A DNA stretch of 64,000 bases from Escherichia phage vB_EcoM_CRJP21. Position 1 is the first letter of the stretch. Each line of letters starts with the position of its first letter. The stretch lies in the sequence record OQ708376.1. One strand, written 5' to 3'. Below are positions 7,520-24,976 of the stretch, in pieces. The notes beneath the pieces were generated by a model that searched no databases, was not told the origin of the DNA, and saw nothing but the letters and a program-made list of their open reading frames with translations. A program made the translations under genes and the position numbers.

Positions 7520-8086
7520 ATGGTTAAATCTTTGCTACCACCACCAAAACGTCATAAAATCAAAGAAATGAAAGAACAACGTACATTAAAGATGTACAAC
7601 AATTTAGTTCAGTTACTGTGTAAAAGTCCATCGCTCAAAGCAGAGTTTAAAACTGATGATGACCGCAAAGCACTAATTGAGATGAAGTATATGCTCAGTA
7701 AAATGTCCTTTTACAAATTTGTAAAAGAATACACAACTGACCCATTTAGTCCTCGTTGGAGATCCAAACCAAGAGAGTATTTTTACGGTGGTTCATATAC
7801 GGATCGCATTCAAGACACAGTGATGGGAGTTGAATTTGAAATCGATTATGAGCCGAATGGTGTGGAAAGCTGGCCGATTGAGAAACGTTTACCAAGTGAA
7901 GAAGAAATTTATGTTTATGCAAGAAAACTTTCAAATTTCAGTTCAAGAATTACTCTAGGCAATTTAGATTCATTTATTATTTTCTATACACGTGTTGGTG
8001 TAGATAAAATGGTAACTAAACTCAATGAACTTTCATTACAACAAAAACAGATTAATGCATACAAAGACATTACTGATTTATACTAA
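7520..8086 (+). CDS. hypothetical protein, tandem paralog 1 of 3
   Basis: AGGAGG RBS; shares D-D-R-K-x-L-I-E-x-K-Y-x-L-S-K block with the next two ORFs. Confidence 0.6.
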   Translation: MVKSLLPPPKRHKIKEMKEQRTLKMYNNLVQLLCKSPSLKAEFKTDDDRKALIEMKYMLSKMSFYKFVKEYTTDPFSPRWRSKPREYFYGGSYTDRIQDTVMGVEFEIDYEPNGVESWPIEKRLPSEEEIYVYARKLSNFSSRITLGNLDSFIIFYTRVGVDKMVTKLNELSLQQKQINAYKDITDLY

Positions 8087-8098
8087 TGAGGAATGGAT

Positions 8099-8614
8099 AT
8101 GTTTTTTGGATCAGTTGGAAAACAAAACAGTACTTTAATTTGGCATGAAATTATCTTTAAAATTATATCTAAAAGCTACTCACTAAAGGATATTATTACC
8201 ACAGATAATGATAGACGTATCCTGTTAGATGCAAAATATAAATTGAGCAAACACCCTTTACTTTCTTTAATCATTGATTACGTTTGTGATTATGAATCTA
8301 GTCGTTGGAAGTGGGAAGACGGCGGTTTATTTCGTGGAAAAACATTCTACGGTGCGGAACGATATGTTTTCAGTGATACATCAAATGGCGTTAAGTTTGT
8401 TATTAGAAACTTTAACTCCAAAGAAAATGATTATCTTGAAAGTGGAGTGAAAGTATATATCGATAATAATAGCAATGTACTAACATATGACGAATCACTA
8501 ATTATGTTACAAATAATGCGTGGTGTTGAAGGTGTAAGAAACAACCTTACTAAATTGAAAATCCAGCAAAATGATATACATAATAGACAGAAAATTAAGG
8601 GTTTATATAAATGA
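8099..8614 (+). CDS. hypothetical protein, tandem paralog 2 of 3
   Basis: ATG 6 nt after GAGGA; shared motif NDRRILLDAKYKLSK. Confidence 0.6.
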   Translation: MFFGSVGKQNSTLIWHEIIFKIISKSYSLKDIITTDNDRRILLDAKYKLSKHPLLSLIIDYVCDYESSRWKWEDGGLFRGKTFYGAERYVFSDTSNGVKFVIRNFNSKENDYLESGVKVYIDNNSNVLTYDESLIMLQIMRGVEGVRNNLTKLKIQQNDIHNRQKIKGLYK

Positions 8615-9120
8615 TTTCATTTTTCAAAAAGAAACAAAAAGTTGATGAAACCGGATTAGAATCGTTTCTATGGACTCTTATCATCAAAAAAAGTCCATTG
8701 ATAAAAGAATATGCTATCAATGATGCTAATAGAAAAACTATCATTGAATACAAATATGAATTATCTAAATGTGATCCAATTGTTTATCACTTTGCGAAGT
8801 ACTGTTCAAAAAATTTATCGGATATCACAATCTACCACGAGTCAGTCCCAATGAGTTTTCCTTATGGTGATTGGGTAGATACTTTTGATATTTTTGATGG
8901 GTCAAATGGTTTCAGTTTCTTTTACTCGTCAAATAAAGCAAGTGTTCGTATTAAAACAGACATAGGTTGGACAAAGCATAGCTCAAATAAAGAAGATTAT
9001 AATTTATTAGCTGACGTATACCGAAGTGTGAAGAATTCAAAGGATATTGATGAAAGAATTAAAAAGCAAAATCGTATATCTTTATCACTTGAAACATACA
9101 AGTCAAAGTATGGTGGTTAA
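8611..9120 (+). CDS. hypothetical protein, tandem paralog 3 of 3
   Basis: ATGA overlap with upstream stop; shared motif NRKTIIEYKYELSK. Confidence 0.6.
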   Translation: MISFFKKKQKVDETGLESFLWTLIIKKSPLIKEYAINDANRKTIIEYKYELSKCDPIVYHFAKYCSKNLSDITIYHESVPMSFPYGDWVDTFDIFDGSNGFSFFYSSNKASVRIKTDIGWTKHSSNKEDYNLLADVYRSVKNSKDIDERIKKQNRISLSLETYKSKYGG

Positions 9121-10921: not shown

Positions 10922-11458
10922 ATGATGGTTTTAACATTGTCAGTACTCGGATCTATTGATGGTGAAGATAGTTCTCTTAGTGATTCTGTGATTGCATCAT
11001 TCGGAACTAATAAAAACAGTTCTTTTATTATATCTGGATGGACTGGAATGACTGATTCTGAAAATAATGTTAAGATAAAAGCTAAAGCTACTAACGAGAA
11101 TCATGAAACAGAATGGGTAACATTATATGATAGTGCAAGTAATAAGTTATATAATGTATTAAGTTCTAATAATATTTTAATTAATCCACTGTCGGGCAAT
11201 GCTGTTTTTAATATTAATTTATCTGATAGAAATACTACTATTTCGATTGGTGCGGCTCCTACTGAAGTTTATTCAATTACCATCCTATTAACACAACAAA
11301 CAGGTTCAAACCTAGTTAATTGGGGTTCTAATGTTAAATGGTCATATAACAGACCAGTTGTTCTTTCTTATGAAATTGGTGAAAAAGATATTATTTCATT
11401 AGAAACATATGATAAAGGAGTTACATGGTACGGTGCATTAATTAGAGCAGGAGTATGA
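10922..11458 (+). CDS. hypothetical protein, start uncertain (possible frameshifted continuation of 10831-10959)
   Basis: 178-aa ORF overlapping a 42-aa ORF in another frame. Confidence 0.35.
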   Translation: MMVLTLSVLGSIDGEDSSLSDSVIASFGTNKNSSFIISGWTGMTDSENNVKIKAKATNENHETEWVTLYDSASNKLYNVLSSNNILINPLSGNAVFNINLSDRNTTISIGAAPTEVYSITILLTQQTGSNLVNWGSNVKWSYNRPVVLSYEIGEKDIISLETYDKGVTWYGALIRAGV

Positions 11459-11459
11459 T

Positions 11460-14249
11460 ATGTTAAACAATAATATTGATAATATTGTACAACTTCTTTA
11501 TGGGCATCACAAATTTATTGAAAGAAATACTGGTGATACAATAGACCCAACAGTACAACATTATGTGGTGAATAATCAGGGTGTTTTGGCGAACAACCGT
11601 CATTTTATTAACTATTCTGCAATGGAAGGTCAACCAAACGGTGACGGGACAACAGAAGGTCAAAGTCTATTAATTTTGGGATACATTTATGCGTATCTGG
11701 CAACAAATGATCCAATGTTTTTAGATAAAGCCAAATGGTACTGGGATGCATATCATCAGTACTTTTATGCTGGACGTGAATTACCAGACCCACCAACTCC
11801 ACTTCAATGTAACTGGATAGTTAATGCCAAAGAACCGATTTTGGCTAACTGGCCTTTAGCTGATGATGGATGGCCTACACATGGTGGTTTCAAGGGTGTA
11901 GAATTTACATTTACAAATGGACAATGTAAAATACCACATGGTGCACCTTATTATGGTCAGTTCTTGGATAAAGTAACATTCGCATTCAAAGGTGCTTTAG
12001 CATGGAACCAAATAAATGCGTCAGTAAAAGCATTACTACCAGATGGTAGTGTTGATTGGGATACCCCTGGTGATCAATATGATGTTGACTGGATTATTGA
12101 TTTCATGGGTAGAAAAATCGACTGGGATGGTAATATTTTAGCAGAAGGTTTTGACGAATCTGAAAAAGGAACGGTTCAATTAAAAAATACAACAATTAAT
12201 GGTGTATATAAATTAAATTTTGCTAATCGTCAACCAGTAGAATATGGTGGTGTGATAATTCAACGAAATGAAATGCAACACAACCGACCACTTCATGTTC
12301 CAATTGATTTGGAATTTGCGGATAATGCATCAGATGCAGAATTGTGGTTTAGTGATGCTTCTTATTTGTTATATAAAATAACAAAAGAAAGAAAACATTA
12401 TTTGGGTTGGAAATGTTCATTACTCACATGCTATGCTTATGGTGATATCGACTCCAGAGATAAATTTTTCAGACAAAGTACAATTGTAACCACACCATTC
12501 ACTGATGGTATTTCCTATGAATATTTTTATCCAAGTGATGCTATCGCTAAGTTTGGTAGAAATTCTTTAGGATATATTACTATCAGGCAAGACCAAAGTG
12601 CACAAAGTACAATGGAACAACAAGCTATTTGGTTCAGGGTCAATGCTGATTCTAAATTACTTGTAGATTATGGTGGTGTATGTGATGATGGTAAGCCGTT
12701 ATCATTTAAACCAGTACTGGAATTGTCTAAAACAAAAAATGATCATGATGTAGTAAGATATCGTTGTGGATTACCAGAAAGTAAAGACCAAAATATCACA
12801 CATTCATTAACACCTTTAAGTGCATTTGTTAGAGAAAAGAAAGCAGATGGTTCCCCTTATATAATTGCTGATAGTAGAATAGTTGTTCCTTATGGTGCAG
12901 CTACGTCCGAAATGATATATAGTACTGATATATTAGTTACACGCCGAGATACCATTAATCAGTTAGTTTGTGGTGAAGATGATGGTGCTGTTATTGGATT
13001 TTGGCTATTAGCAACAAATAAGTCTGAAGTTAAATCTTTTACATATCGTTCATATGAAGATGATTACAATATAAGAATTGTAGATGATAATGGTTGGAGA
13101 TGGTGGTGGATGATTCCTGCAACACACGGGGAATGGACTACAATCACACTAAGTTCCGATACATTACGTTTATCTGGGTATCAGCCAAATCATCCAAGTT
13201 CTGACCCAAGACCAGATGCACCAGTATATAGTGAGCTAGAAGATATTACTATTTTACCTGATACAACCCCAGTAGATGGTGTTGCTGCAATAATTGATTG
13301 GTATTGTATTAATGACATTCCAGAATTATATACGGATGCTGACGGTGATGACTATACTATGACATTTTCAATAACAATTGCAGGTGAATCACCATATACT
13401 GCACAGTTAGGGGATTGTGTAATCAAAGATTATTTGTTAAACTCATTGCATTACACACCAGGAACAATACCATTTTCTAACATCACTGACCCGTATGCGA
13501 ACCAGTACTCAGGTTGGCGTGGTTTACCGTATCCAGGTTATCAATATCCAGTGATATATTGTTTTAAAGACCAGCCAGTAGATAACACACGCTTAGGAAA
13601 CATGTTAAGCTTTATGAAAGATTCCCAAACATGGTTTACTCAACAATTCGGTACTGTTGGTCCGTGTGCACAAGCATATGTTTGGAACCGCTGGGATAAC
13701 TTAAAATATGGTGAACCAGATACATTTACTATGCTACATTGGGGTGATCAAGCATGGAGTGGGTATGAACCACGTGCGTTCTTTGGGGCTGCCAGAGCAT
13801 GGCAAGAACTCGCAGAGAGAGGAATTGAACCACCAGCAGATCTTGTTGAATTTTGTGAGAATTGGATTCACTTTTTAATTCAATTTCAAAAAGATAATGA
13901 TGGTCGTTCACCAACAATCTTCAATAAAGATGGCACAGTTGAAGGTCCAGATTGGGACTTTACAGGTCATATGTGTGGGTTGTGGTTAGCTGGGGCTTGT
14001 GCTGCTGGATTGGCTGGATGTAAAATAGAAGGTCTAACAACACTCGCTGATAACTTAGTTCTCGAACTTCAAAAGAATTATGTTATTGTAAATCCAGGTT
14101 CCCCAATGAATGGTTCATGGAGTCCAGCAGTTAGAGAAGGTACTGATAATGGTATGTTTTTTGGTTTCTGGGCAGGTGAGATTATGCGTGGATTGGGGTT
14201 ATACTCAATGTACCGTTTAAACACACCAAATCGTTTCCGTGATTTATAA
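11460..14249 (+). CDS. large hypothetical protein (929 aa)
   Basis: long uninterrupted ORF, Trp/Tyr-rich (WYWDAY, WRWWWM); no motif I can assign. Confidence 0.6.
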   Translation: MLNNNIDNIVQLLYGHHKFIERNTGDTIDPTVQHYVVNNQGVLANNRHFINYSAMEGQPNGDGTTEGQSLLILGYIYAYLATNDPMFLDKAKWYWDAYHQYFYAGRELPDPPTPLQCNWIVNAKEPILANWPLADDGWPTHGGFKGVEFTFTNGQCKIPHGAPYYGQFLDKVTFAFKGALAWNQINASVKALLPDGSVDWDTPGDQYDVDWIIDFMGRKIDWDGNILAEGFDESEKGTVQLKNTTINGVYKLNFANRQPVEYGGVIIQRNEMQHNRPLHVPIDLEFADNASDAELWFSDASYLLYKITKERKHYLGWKCSLLTCYAYGDIDSRDKFFRQSTIVTTPFTDGISYEYFYPSDAIAKFGRNSLGYITIRQDQSAQSTMEQQAIWFRVNADSKLLVDYGGVCDDGKPLSFKPVLELSKTKNDHDVVRYRCGLPESKDQNITHSLTPLSAFVREKKADGSPYIIADSRIVVPYGAATSEMIYSTDILVTRRDTINQLVCGEDDGAVIGFWLLATNKSEVKSFTYRSYEDDYNIRIVDDNGWRWWWMIPATHGEWTTITLSSDTLRLSGYQPNHPSSDPRPDAPVYSELEDITILPDTTPVDGVAAIIDWYCINDIPELYTDADGDDYTMTFSITIAGESPYTAQLGDCVIKDYLLNSLHYTPGTIPFSNITDPYANQYSGWRGLPYPGYQYPVIYCFKDQPVDNTRLGNMLSFMKDSQTWFTQQFGTVGPCAQAYVWNRWDNLKYGEPDTFTMLHWGDQAWSGYEPRAFFGAARAWQELAERGIEPPADLVEFCENWIHFLIQFQKDNDGRSPTIFNKDGTVEGPDWDFTGHMCGLWLAGACAAGLAGCKIEGLTTLADNLVLELQKNYVIVNPGSPMNGSWSPAVREGTDNGMFFGFWAGEIMRGLGLYSMYRLNTPNRFRDL

Positions 14250-14250
14250 C

Positions 14251-14279
14251 TTGACATAGAAAAAGTAATTATGTATAAT
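14251..14279 (+). promoter_or_regulatory. sigma70-type early promoter
   Basis: TTGACA, 17-nt spacer, TATAAT. Confidence 0.7.
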
Positions 14280-14280
14280 T

Positions 14281-14311
14281 AGAGAACTTCATATGGAGTT
14301 CTCTTTTTTTA
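14281..14311 (+). terminator. intrinsic terminator hairpin immediately downstream of the promoter
   Basis: agagaact-8 nt loop-agttctct plus 7 T. Confidence 0.6.
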
Positions 14312-14323
14312 TAAGGTGATAAA

Positions 14324-14743
14324 ATGTTAAATGAACGTATTAAAAATGCACTACATGTATTGAATCAAGAAGTCAATTCTATTCATAAAAGTACTGACCG
14401 TTATAAAGTAATGCATGAAATCAAACAAGAATTGGAATCTATTAATAAGGGAGAGTGGTGGTATCTTCAGCCCGAATATCAAACTCGTGAATTAAACGAT
14501 GTTGAAAAAGAAATTGTCAAATTCATCACTACTCGTTATTGTGATACATCAGAGAATGATGTATCAGCGAACTTCAATCTTACTAAATTGGAAGTCGAAG
14601 AAAAATTCCATTTTGATTGGCTTGATTGGATTGAAATGGTAATGGAACTAGAAGAAAAATTCAATGTTGAAGTTGATGAAAAGTTCGAGAATAATGAAAC
14701 TAAGCTGTATGAACTAGTAGAACATATTCAAAAAATGTTGTAA
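14324..14743 (+). CDS. ACP-like protein lacking the phosphopantetheine-attachment serine
   Basis: C-terminal DWLDWIEMVMELEEKFNVEVDEKF resembles ACP helix II [16 protein letters not shown] with Trp in place of Ser. Confidence 0.4.
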   Translation: MLNERIKNALHVLNQEVNSIHKSTDRYKVMHEIKQELESINKGEWWYLQPEYQTRELNDVEKEIVKFITTRYCDTSENDVSANFNLTKLEVEEKFHFDWLDWIEMVMELEEKFNVEVDEKFENNETKLYELVEHIQKML

Positions 14744-14796
14744 AACTATACAATTGTATACTCTAAATAATATCATCAACTATAGGAGATATTATT

Positions 14797-15171
14797 ATGA
14801 GTATGTTAGAAATAATTGTTTCAAAAATTCTTATTCCATTTTGGAAACCAATTTCTTTTGTATTATTAATTGGCGGTTCAGCTTATGCTGGTTGGGAAGC
14901 TAATACTTATTACAGTGGATATCAACAAAGCATAGAGCAACAAATAGCTAAAAAAGTTGATACCGCCTTGGATAAAATGCAACAAGAAAATGCAAAAAAT
15001 TACCTTGAAACTAAAAAAATCATGGAAGATAATGCTAAAGTTATTGAAACAAAGGTTCCTTTTATTGTAGAACGTGAAGTTTATAAGAATGTATGTTTAG
15101 ATGAAGATGGTGTAAAAGTACTGAATGAACTAAAACAAAATTCTCAAGCTGCGAGGAATAAATTCAAATGA
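14797..15171 (+). CDS. i-spanin candidate (inner-membrane spanin)
   Basis: N-terminal TM segment then charged helical region; ATGA-coupled to a downstream lipoprotein ORF. Confidence 0.5.
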   Translation: MSMLEIIVSKILIPFWKPISFVLLIGGSAYAGWEANTYYSGYQQSIEQQIAKKVDTALDKMQQENAKNYLETKKIMEDNAKVIETKVPFIVEREVYKNVCLDEDGVKVLNELKQNSQAARNKFK

Positions 15172-15476
15172 AAAAATTATTAGTTCCGTTTATTTCTTTT
15201 TTAATTATAAGTGGATGTGCAGAACAAGTAAAACTACAATCCCCTACACCAATTAAACAAGAAATTCTGTTAGAAAGATGTGATGATGATACACCTCTAC
15301 CACAAAAAATTATGATTGACAAAAATGGTTTTAAAGGTTATGATGGTGCAGAAATTCTTAAAGTACTTACTCGTTGGGATGCAGTATACAACGAATGTGC
15401 TTTAAAACATGATGCATTAATTAAAACTATTCGTGATTTACAAGGTAAAGATATTAAAATCAATATCAAGGAATAA
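15168..15476 (+). CDS. o-spanin candidate (outer-membrane lipoprotein)
   Basis: signal peptide with lipobox LIISGC. Confidence 0.5.
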   Translation: MKKLLVPFISFLIISGCAEQVKLQSPTPIKQEILLERCDDDTPLPQKIMIDKNGFKGYDGAEILKVLTRWDAVYNECALKHDALIKTIRDLQGKDIKINIKE

Positions 15477-15477
15477 A

Positions 15478-16089
15478 ATGAACAAATATCATGTTTACTA
15501 TACGACCAAATTATCACTTCTTGACGAATTAAATCAACGAAGTACTAAGATGAAACGCTACACTTTAAATGGTATTACTTTTCGATATTTCCCACAAAAA
15601 GTTCTTACATTTATTAAGAATCCAAAATGCGTGGCATGTGGGATTGAAGCTACTGAAGTACGCATTGAACGTTCATTATGTTCTGATCCAGTATATGGTA
15701 AACCACATTTAAATGTATATGCTGTATGTGGTCTTTATGAAGTTTTAATGACAGTTGACCATAATCATCTGGCATCTAAGGGTGGACCTGATTTAGAGTC
15801 AAACTTTAATACTATGTGCTCCAGATGTAATCAACTACGTTCGAATAAAACTGAAACAGTTGATGAGTTTCTTGAGAAAGTTAAAGGTCGTAATCTTCTC
15901 CAAGAACATATGAATAATTTCTTTAATGTACAAAAAAAGAAAAATAACATTGACAAGTCGAAACTACTAGAAGAACGTAGGTTACGTCAAGAATTATGGG
16001 AAACTGATCATCTATGGCATGTTCGAGAGTTTGGTCGTCATATGAAAGCATTGAAAAAAGAACAGAAGAAATTGAATAAACATGATTGA
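15478..16089 (+). CDS. HNH endonuclease
   Basis: CVACG ... VDHNHLASKGG ... CSRCN motif set; ATG at 15478 right after o-spanin stop. Confidence 0.6.
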   Translation: MNKYHVYYTTKLSLLDELNQRSTKMKRYTLNGITFRYFPQKVLTFIKNPKCVACGIEATEVRIERSLCSDPVYGKPHLNVYAVCGLYEVLMTVDHNHLASKGGPDLESNFNTMCSRCNQLRSNKTETVDEFLEKVKGRNLLQEHMNNFFNVQKKKNNIDKSKLLEERRLRQELWETDHLWHVREFGRHMKALKKEQKKLNKHD

Positions 16090-16102
16090 TATGATATTAT
16101 AG

Positions 16103-16131
16103 GGACTTGAGTATTCAAGTCCTTTTTTTTT
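16103..16131 (+). terminator. intrinsic terminator
   Basis: ggacttga-gtat-tcaagtcc plus 9 T. Confidence 0.75.
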
Positions 16132-16142
16132 GGAGAAAATAT

Positions 16143-16415
16143 ATGAAAACAAAATTATTTCCACAACAAATAATGATTGAACTGTGCGAACATCAGTCTG
16201 GTGAAGTTGTTACAATCAGTGGTGATACGTATTCCATCATTTTAAATGAACAACAATTTGATCATACAAACCATACGAATGAACTGTATAATCTTATGTT
16301 TATGGACGATAAGAGTGAAAAATACTATCATTGTACATATGAACGATGTATAGATACAACACCATTTTGTAATGAAATGGTTGGTGTTAAATGTTATGAA
16401 TGTGAAGTGTTATGA
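16143..16415 (+). CDS. small Cys-rich protein, tandem paralog 1
   Basis: MKTK...ELCEH...YYHCTYER...C..C shared with next ORF. Confidence 0.55.
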   Translation: MKTKLFPQQIMIELCEHQSGEVVTISGDTYSIILNEQQFDHTNHTNELYNLMFMDDKSEKYYHCTYERCIDTTPFCNEMVGVKCYECEVL

Positions 16416-16435: not shown

Positions 16436-16792
16436 ATGAAAACAAAAATCTTTCTACCACAAACCATGATGGAACTGTGTGAACATGATGCAGGGGATGT
16501 TGTCACTATTAGTGGTTCCTGGAATGAGAGTACTGAAGACTTTATGCCAGATGAGGTATATTCTGTTGTTTTAAATGAACAGTACAATACAAGCCGTTGG
16601 AATGCACAGTACAATCTAGTTTTTCTTGACAATAACAATGAAAAGTACTATCATTGTACGTATGAACGAGGTCTGACAGAACGTAACTACACAACTCCTT
16701 TCTGTGATGAAATGGATGGTGTAAAGTGCTATGAAGTTTATGTTCGTCAGGTTCCAGTTGTTACTTACAAAACCGAGTGGGATTATCTGTAA
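16436..16792 (+). CDS. small Cys-rich protein, tandem paralog 2
   Basis: same N-terminus and Cys pattern as 16143-16415. Confidence 0.55.
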   Translation: MKTKIFLPQTMMELCEHDAGDVVTISGSWNESTEDFMPDEVYSVVLNEQYNTSRWNAQYNLVFLDNNNEKYYHCTYERGLTERNYTTPFCDEMDGVKCYEVYVRQVPVVTYKTEWDYL

Positions 16793-24604: not shown

Positions 24605-24937
24605 ATGCTAAAATTAAATATTCAAGGTAATGTTGATTTTACTACAGCAATTCAAGATGCAATTTACGATGGTGCTAAATGTCTTGAAAAGTTCCGTACT
24701 TCAACTGTAATGGATATTGAAGTTCATGTGAAGAAAGAGCATAAGTCTCAATACTCTGTGACTATAACATCAGGTAGTAAATCAGTTACTGCCGATGCAG
24801 CAGATTTATACAAAGCAATTGGTGATTCATTTGAAAAAATGGAAACTGTATTCAGTAAAGACAAAAGCATTAAATTACACCGCCGAAACCATCCAGAACA
24901 CCCAGTTCTTAATGATTTGACAGAAAACGAAGAGTAA
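24605..24937 (+). CDS. hpf: ribosome hibernation promoting factor (HPF/RaiA family)
   Basis: MLKLNIQGNVDFTTAIQDAI ... ADLYKAIGDSFEKME ... KDKSIK aligns with E. coli HPF along its length. Confidence 0.65.
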   Translation: MLKLNIQGNVDFTTAIQDAIYDGAKCLEKFRTSTVMDIEVHVKKEHKSQYSVTITSGSKSVTADAADLYKAIGDSFEKMETVFSKDKSIKLHRRNHPEHPVLNDLTENEE

Positions 24938-24948
24938 TATATACTAAA

Positions 24949-24976
24949 GGGACAGATTAATTCTGTCCCTTTTCTT
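24949..24976 (+). terminator. intrinsic terminator
   Basis: gggacaga-ttaat-tctgtccc plus ttttctt. Confidence 0.7.

Follow-up and report, generated by a model that had tools for sequence, protein, structure and literature searches.

Acyl carrier proteins (ACPs) are defined by their phosphopantetheine arm, which raises the question of what an ACP-like protein does when the serine that should carry this arm has been replaced by tryptophan. Such a protein is encoded by Escherichia phage vB_EcoM_CRJP21 (OQ708376.1), of which a stretch of 64,000 nucleotides, here called the window, was analysed. The window derives from a jumbo coliphage of the 121Q/PBECO4/phAPEC6 type (genus Asteriusvirus), and the 1.6 kb around the ACP-like gene are 98-99% identical to about 20 such Asteriusvirus genomes. 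The protein, in whose translation the peptide FHFDWLDWIEMVMELEEKFNVEVDEKF is found, is 100% identical in 121Q (gp510), phAPEC6 (gp313c) and BF17, and has neither a transmembrane segment nor a signal peptide. That the gene carries the label 'acyl carrier protein' in some databases is already known: a few entries call it that, 'acpP' or 'D-alanyl carrier protein 1', and most list it as hypothetical. The original prediction saw in it an ACP mimic that cannot be loaded and might act as a decoy for ACP-binding enzymes of the host. The features of the locus are collected in Table 1.

Table 1. Features of the ACP-like gene and its surroundings, in window coordinates.
Feature	Position	Strand	Basis or remark
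Putative sigma-70-type promoter-like site, TTGACA-17 nt-TATAAT	14251..14279	+	12/12 consensus match only
Terminator-like hairpin and T-run, 10-bp stem, 4-nt loop	14281..14310 (hairpin 14281-14304)	+	Predicted
Shine-Dalgarno sequence AAGGTGA	14313..14319	+	4 nt 5' of the ATG; direct sequence reading
CDS of the two-domain ACP-like protein, 139 aa	14324..14743	+	ATG start
N-terminal helical hairpin, residues 1-45 (helices 2-19 and 25-41)	14324..14458	+	AlphaFold2
ACP-fold domain, residues 55-139	14486..14740	+	AlphaFold2, hhalign, PDB profile and fold matches
Trp99 codon TGG, at the Ser36 position of E. coli AcpP	14618..14620	+	Alignments
Trp102 codon TGG, +3 from the attachment site	14627..14629	+	Alignments
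i-spanin, Rz-like, N-terminal transmembrane segment	14797..15171	+	phrog_1152, E 6.6e-29
o-spanin candidate, lipobox ...LIISGC	15168..15476	+	phrog_2425; weak LysC/Rz1-like Pfam match
HNH endonuclease	15478..16089	+	3' of the o-spanin candidate
Next terminator-like hairpin and T-run	16101..16124	+	Probable 3' end of the ACP-like/spanin/HNH unit

The similarity to ACPs had been predicted for the C-terminal part of the protein, and it turns out to span all ACP helices from about residue 55 onwards. With the single sequence as query against the PDB, phmmer returned nearly exclusively ACPs (best E-value 9e-4) and aligned the canonical DSLD with DWLD, while ACP families of PHROG matched at 1e-7 and 5e-6. 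A profile built from 15 family members was aligned by hhalign to canonical single-domain ACPs over 79 columns covering residues 55-139 (98.7%, E-value 1.5e-16), and in the PDB the family profile matched the ACP of B. subtilis at 7e-10 and AcpP of E. coli at about 5e-9. The AlphaFold2 model (pLDDT 82.9) has the helices of an ACP domain (I, 59-71; II, 99-113; III, 119-122; IV, 128-138), and W99 opens helix II at the position of AcpP Ser36. The similarity greatly exceeds chance and is thus neither restricted to one acidic helix nor devoid of an ACP fold, and the protein is a genuine ACP-fold homolog across the whole ACP domain.

Compared with AcpP (PF00550, TIGR00517), the protein shares the helical ACP fold, a similar domain size and charge (net charge of the ACP domain -14 against -15) and the acidic helix II of the form D-x-L-D...E...M.LEE.F, in which the acidic character is kept and 10 of 16 residues are identical to E. 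coli AcpP. It differs in the tryptophan that stands for the serine, in the added N-terminal hairpin of 55 residues, in an overall identity of only ~24%, in the absence of associated acyl-chemistry genes and in scores that miss the curated cut-offs, with 19.1 bits against 32 for PF14573, 24 against 70.45 bits for TIGR00517 and no report for PF00550 at E<=10. The closest solved relatives are ACPs of type II fatty acid synthesis (FAS), and the best profile match is the B. subtilis ACP, not that of the host. An N-terminal extension had likewise been anticipated and is present, but it consists of a hairpin plus linker of ~55 residues rather than the 80 residues proposed. For this hairpin no sequence or fold match was found in the PDB and no relative was detected outside the RaK2-like family; phrog_18343, the protein's own family, matches with an E-value of 1.3e-61 over residues 2-139, hairpin included.

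PPTases transfer the cofactor onto a serine hydroxyl. Because they need this hydroxyl and residue 99 is tryptophan, established chemistry excludes phosphopantetheinylation at the canonical site, as the original prediction maintained, and the impossibility of canonical-site carriage makes the Asteriusvirus labels quoted above misleading. A tblastn search with E. coli AcpS (a query validated by its match to an annotated phage acpS) found no AcpS-type PPTase in any RaK2-like phage, no second, canonical ACP was found in the window or in RaK2-like phages, and enzymes of acyl chemistry (acyl or aminoacyl ligases, transferases) were found neither near the gene nor in these phages.

Several observations concern other ACP loci. 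The ACP genes of unrelated phages do not lie beside lysis genes or spanins. In Xanthomonas phage phiXF1 (L019, 3486-4167), Erythrobacter phage R6L (L020, 3465-4429) and Olleya phage Harreka_1 (L021, 3468-4099) a canonical ACP gene runs into the start of the next ORF, a hypothetical one of 129-228 aa whose product, perhaps of PPTase size, may be a conserved partner of ACP. Within the family, Salmonella phage SD-15_S21 (P0004) has a 192-aa version that was probably called from an upstream start. A candidate Rosetta-stone fusion was discarded: the 432-aa BFVD match A0A2Z5HFQ2 is probably the 432-aa CDS of phage CMSTMSU (L017, 1631-2929), which fuses part of a nucleotidyltransferase with the ACP-like ORF and is an artefact, since that record is marked UNVERIFIED and its genes are heavily fragmented.

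The significance of the tryptophan can be judged from the orthologs. Among 1.84 billion cluster representatives the family search gave 22 matches at E<=1e-3, of which ~10 are full-length clusters, and a search of IMG/VR with alignment A1 returned 121Q itself only; the family is restricted to RaK2-like jumbo phages that infect enterobacteria or Xanthomonas. A neighbour-joining (NJ) tree of 21 orthologs from cultured phages and metagenomic contigs, built from this short protein, divides them cleanly into two branches. Branch A has eight members, namely Mimasvirus CBB and XbC2, Eneladusvirus pEa_SNUABM_50 and fHe-Yen9-03, Kaldavass, Salmonella phage 7t3 and two metagenomic clusters. Branch B has 13 and consists of Asteriusvirus, Alcyoneusvirus (RaK2, Muenster) and six metagenomic clusters. 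The 'acyl carrier protein' of Mimasvirus and Eneladusvirus (CBB gp163, GAP32, Serratia BF, pEa_SNUABM_12/47/50, fHe-Yen9) is one of the closest known systems: it is orthologous, has the same two domains and lies directly upstream of the spanin pair. It differs in having kept the LDSLD serine with a variable +3 residue, where the CRJP21 protein has tryptophan at +3 and a free 'Ser' site.

This difference sets the two branches apart as a whole. Branch A has the canonical L-D-S-L-D in 8/8 members and a +3 residue that varies (M, E, Y, T, I, V). Branch B has the motif D-x-[LCW]-D-W, with tryptophan at +3 in 13/13 members against 0/8 in branch A, and its 'Ser' column reads W, W, S, S, S, N, R, E, T, S, D, D, K, so that the attachment-site residue alternates between opposite charges (K/R versus D/E) among relatives. 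In a 15-member alignment composed of all 13 branch B and two branch A sequences, the entropy of this column is 2.61 bits, higher than in 83% of ACP-domain columns, although Asp98 and Asp101 on either side of it never vary. W102 and E110 are conserved. Parsimony on the NJ tree places serine at the root and requires at least seven changes, all of them inside branch B. The original prediction took tryptophan for serine as the key feature; W is one of at least eight residues tolerated at this position (W, S, N, T, R, E, D, K). The attachment site has been released from constraint in branch B, and W99 is one recent state of it.

How recent can be seen within Asteriusvirus, where 121Q and Ecwhy_1 share a single serine-to-tryptophan event nested among serine-bearing sisters (A4, UE-S1, P0009). 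The serine codon of these sisters is TCA, and the change to TGG therefore took two steps, presumably via TCG. Scores against the curated ACP models drop stepwise from ~47-49 bits in branch A to ~31 in A4, which has the serine, and 24 in 121Q, with none in RaK2. A Fisher test for the association between the serine and the +3 tryptophan gives p 0.005 and ignores phylogeny. Since aromatic residues (F, Y, H) occur at +3 in serine-bearing ACPs too, including that of CBB, the link between Trp102 and serine loss is a correlation on one deep branch, and the association reads as effectively one evolutionary event.

The remainder of the protein is far from free to change. Between two W-bearing lineages dN/dS is 0.21 at a dS of 0.78, and the ORF is intact in every sampled genome with the exception of error-laden records. 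In close Asteriusvirus pairs dN/dS is 0.07-0.20 for the hairpin and 0.15-0.35 for the ACP domain. The gene is under purifying selection (dN/dS ~0.2), and its most constrained part is the hairpin, which is not ACP. Within the latter S23 and Y27 are nearly invariant, as part of a conserved K-S-T-D-R-Y motif whose form across the family is S-x-[DE]-R-Y.

The genomic setting is equally stable. In every lineage examined (Asterius-, Alcyoneus-, Mimas- and Eneladusvirus as well as metagenomic relatives with as little as ~16-25% identity) the ACP-like gene occurs in single copy and keeps the same place, immediately upstream of the i-spanin/o-spanin pair. The start of the o-spanin candidate overlaps the i-spanin stop, and the gene is annotated as an o-spanin in Muenster, XbC2 and pEa_SNUABM_50. 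The adjacency holds despite upstream rearrangement, a tail-gene indel and a variable HNH insertion downstream. The RlaP-type nucleotidyltransferase and several ~170-aa paralogs occur in a different order in RaK2 and Asteriusvirus, and a pair of tail genes (10922-14249) is inserted in 121Q, A4 and Turkey5 and absent from this place in Ecwhy_1, UE-S1 and RaK2. The HNH gene is present at this spot in Asteriusvirus, Alcyoneusvirus and 7t3 and absent in Mimasvirus, Eneladusvirus and Kaldavass, which suggests a mobile insertion into the lysis operon. The genomes are broadly collinear, however, and spanin adjacency may for this reason reflect inheritance rather than function.

In the window, the terminator-like hairpin upstream of the gene would end the transcript of the preceding tail gene, and as the putative promoter ends 1 nt before this hairpin, the predicted start site falls inside its 5' arm. 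Between 14304 and 16101 there is no further terminator-like site, and the ACP-like, i-spanin, o-spanin and HNH genes consequently look like one transcription unit (14251-16124). Ecwhy_1 and RaK2 lack the promoter, and in them the ACP-like gene adjoins the ORF before it or overlaps with it.

Four features of the surroundings deserve a separate mention. First, the tail-gene pair at 10922-14249, which follows the nucleotidyltransferase, consists of a tail-fibre gene (178 aa) and a tail-protein gene (929 aa) and represents a receptor-binding-module indel whose right boundary is the promoter/hairpin cassette. Second, such cassettes, in which a strong sigma-70-like promoter abuts a terminator-like hairpin and T-run with the predicted start in the 5' arm, recur on the + strand at 14251-14304, ~24917-24970 and 16072-16124, with consensus matches of 12/12, 11/12 and 9/12, respectively; they recall the mobile regulatory cassettes of T4-type phages known as promoter-early-stem-loop ('PeSL') elements. 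Third, 7520-9120 is occupied by three paralogous ORFs in tandem (169-188 aa; phrog_18641 twice, phrog_7868). They have counterparts in all RaK2-like phages, and in RaK2 and branch A the last of these extends into the beginning of the ACP-like gene. They were considered as PPTase, hotdog-fold protein or acyltransferase, and yielded no Pfam or PDB profile match, only two close homologs and an AlphaFold2 model too poor to use (pLDDT 58). Fourth, two small Cys-rich tandem paralogs (16143-16415 and 16436-16792; 53% identity, E-value 2e-35) lie past the second terminator and share the motifs MKTK.F..Q.M.ELCEH..G.VVTISG and EKYYHCTYER...TTPFC.EM.GVKCYE.

Published data bear on expression rather than on function. 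For three phages, LC-MS/MS of purified preparations revealed the Eneladusvirus ortholog, a 15.6-kDa protein, and the same paper remarks that the ACP gene adjoins the spanin genes (PMC7760394). Detection in three phages makes it an expressed and fairly abundant protein. In phAPEC6 the identical gp313c is absent from the 62 virion proteins detected by mass spectrometry, which include its neighbours gp314c and gp315c (PMC7247149), and no mention of the ACP-like protein was found for RaK2 or CBB. Since spanin homologs also carry a 'structural' annotation in CBB and XbC2, abundant late proteins may co-purify with virions. A role as virion component was rejected on these grounds. The literature search returned no functional or transcriptomic report on the protein and none on the loss of its serine; this loss and its branch pattern appear to be undescribed.

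How can these observations be reconciled? The serine site is free in branch B and the residues next to it are constrained, and we therefore propose a cofactor-free ACP-fold protein that acts by protein-protein binding and preferably serves the programme of the phage itself, as an adaptor or accessory subunit. We consider the chances of this explanation evenly balanced, and prefer it to a toxin-like decoy. A role in the phage's own programme is favoured by the fixed position of the gene in every lineage examined, by ancestors that needed the serine, by a hairpin that is the best-conserved part and by a site residue that alternates between opposite charges. Cofactor independence as a functional property, and the mode of binding, we infer from sequence. 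The family descends from a serine-bearing, presumably phosphopantetheinylated phage ACP. On the branch leading to Asteriusvirus and Alcyoneusvirus, tryptophan was fixed at +3 and the serine was no longer needed, and in the 121Q/Ecwhy_1 clade the serine was then swapped for a second tryptophan. The acidic helix II (D98, D101, E104 and E110 are conserved) may dock on a basic surface as it does in ACPs, with the hairpin supplying a second contact or a means of oligomerisation, and this subunit would be expressed together with the spanin lysis genes and the structural block.

This proposal is modelled on cellular ACPs that serve as structural subunits of larger complexes, such as NDUFAB1/ACPM in complex I, AcpP in MukBEF, and those associated with Ycf2-FtsHi and with mitoribosome assembly factors. 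There too the ACP fold is a docking subunit and not a metabolic shuttle, and such chains are among the fold matches of the phage protein. Many of these subunits, including that of complex I, retain an acyl-phosphopantetheine that is often part of the interface, whereas the attachment site is gone in the CRJP21 protein, and the analogy serves as a working model. In a further reading the +3 tryptophan, and in 121Q also the second tryptophan at the attachment site, would stand in for the acyl-phosphopantetheine arm as the hydrophobic element. The family would then be in transition from a cofactor-dependent carrier to a cofactor-free mimic, and could engage an ACP-binding partner (a host enzyme such as PlsB, Lpx or MukB, or a phage complex) independently of the host's supply of AcpS and coenzyme A. 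We regard this reading as doubtful; a role of Trp102 in compensating for the lost cofactor is attractive but weakly supported.

The strongest competitor is the host-directed decoy, according to which the unloadable ACP domain mimics apo-ACP, occupies ACP clients of the host and thereby blocks or redirects lipid metabolism. It has a precedent in E. coli, where apo-ACP strongly inhibits glycerol-3-phosphate acyltransferase and halts growth (PMC3896788), and the phage protein could by analogy be another arm-less ACP that acts by binding; apo-ACP, on the other hand, is a protein of the host itself, unmodified and given in high dose, while the phage protein is only distantly similar to AcpP. A domain as acidic as AcpP, the 10 of 16 identities in helix II, the unmodifiable W99 and the kinship with type II FAS ACPs all fit a decoy, and the perfect sigma-70 promoter immediately upstream would suit early, host-directed expression. 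This promoter is lineage-specific, however, and the gene sits beside lysis and structural genes, outside the variable early and host-takeover genes. The ~24% identity to AcpP and the better match to B. subtilis ACP give no sign of selection for close mimicry. Moreover, the serine retained throughout branch A would be needless for a decoy, the residue that would face the entrance of a client's active site switches between K/R and D/E, and the strongest constraint falls on the hairpin that is not ACP. The decoy thus receives no direct support here, the conserved position, the hairpin constraint and the branch A serine leaning the other way, and we consider it unlikely; its candidate clients would be PlsB, AcpS, LpxA/D, Fab enzymes, MukB and SpoT.

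A more specific version of a phage-internal role, which we judge less probable still, is that of a lysis accessory factor, a cytoplasmic protein that times or regulates lysis together with the co-transcribed spanins or a holin. The triad of ACP-like protein, i-spanin and o-spanin persists at identities as low as ~16-25% despite flanking rearrangement and forms one apparent transcription unit, its adjacency has been remarked on in Eneladusvirus, and a homolog of rI.-1 lies nearby in RaK2. Set against this, the protein lacks any transmembrane segment or signal peptide while spanins act in the periplasm. Lipoprotein acylation offers no connection either, as it draws on phospholipid donors and needs no acyl-ACP. 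Unrelated phages do not keep their ACP genes near lysis genes, and collinearity alone could account for the synteny. A likeness of the hairpin to the cytoplasmic lysis-inhibition factor RIII of T4 was looked for and rejected (hhalign, 0.2%).

That the protein is still a carrier, with a prosthetic group at another residue such as Ser23 or attached by another enzyme, is very improbable. The near-invariance of S23 and the conservation of the canonical serine in branch A speak for it, but S23 belongs to the loop of the hairpin and has no ACP context around it; PPTases recognise the N-terminus of helix II, and the phages have no AcpS-type PPTase and no acyl or aminoacyl ligase or transferase nearby. 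The last possibility, a decaying relic that lost its function along with the serine and persists by chance, has in its favour only that the protein scores under the threshold of all curated ACP models, and is effectively refuted by the dN/dS between W-bearing lineages, in line with the intact ORFs and the conserved residues around the attachment site, which leaves it the least credible of all.

What is new here is, as far as the searched literature reveals, a phage-specific two-domain ACP-fold family that dispensed with its defining serine in one branch. With the serine conserved in one branch and replaceable in its sister, the family amounts to an evolutionary experiment on a cofactor-free ACP fold. 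If the partner is an ACP client of the host, the protein would represent a new form of phage interference with lipid metabolism and a scaffold for probes or inhibitors; if it is a phage complex, the theme of the ACP as a structural subunit would extend to viruses.
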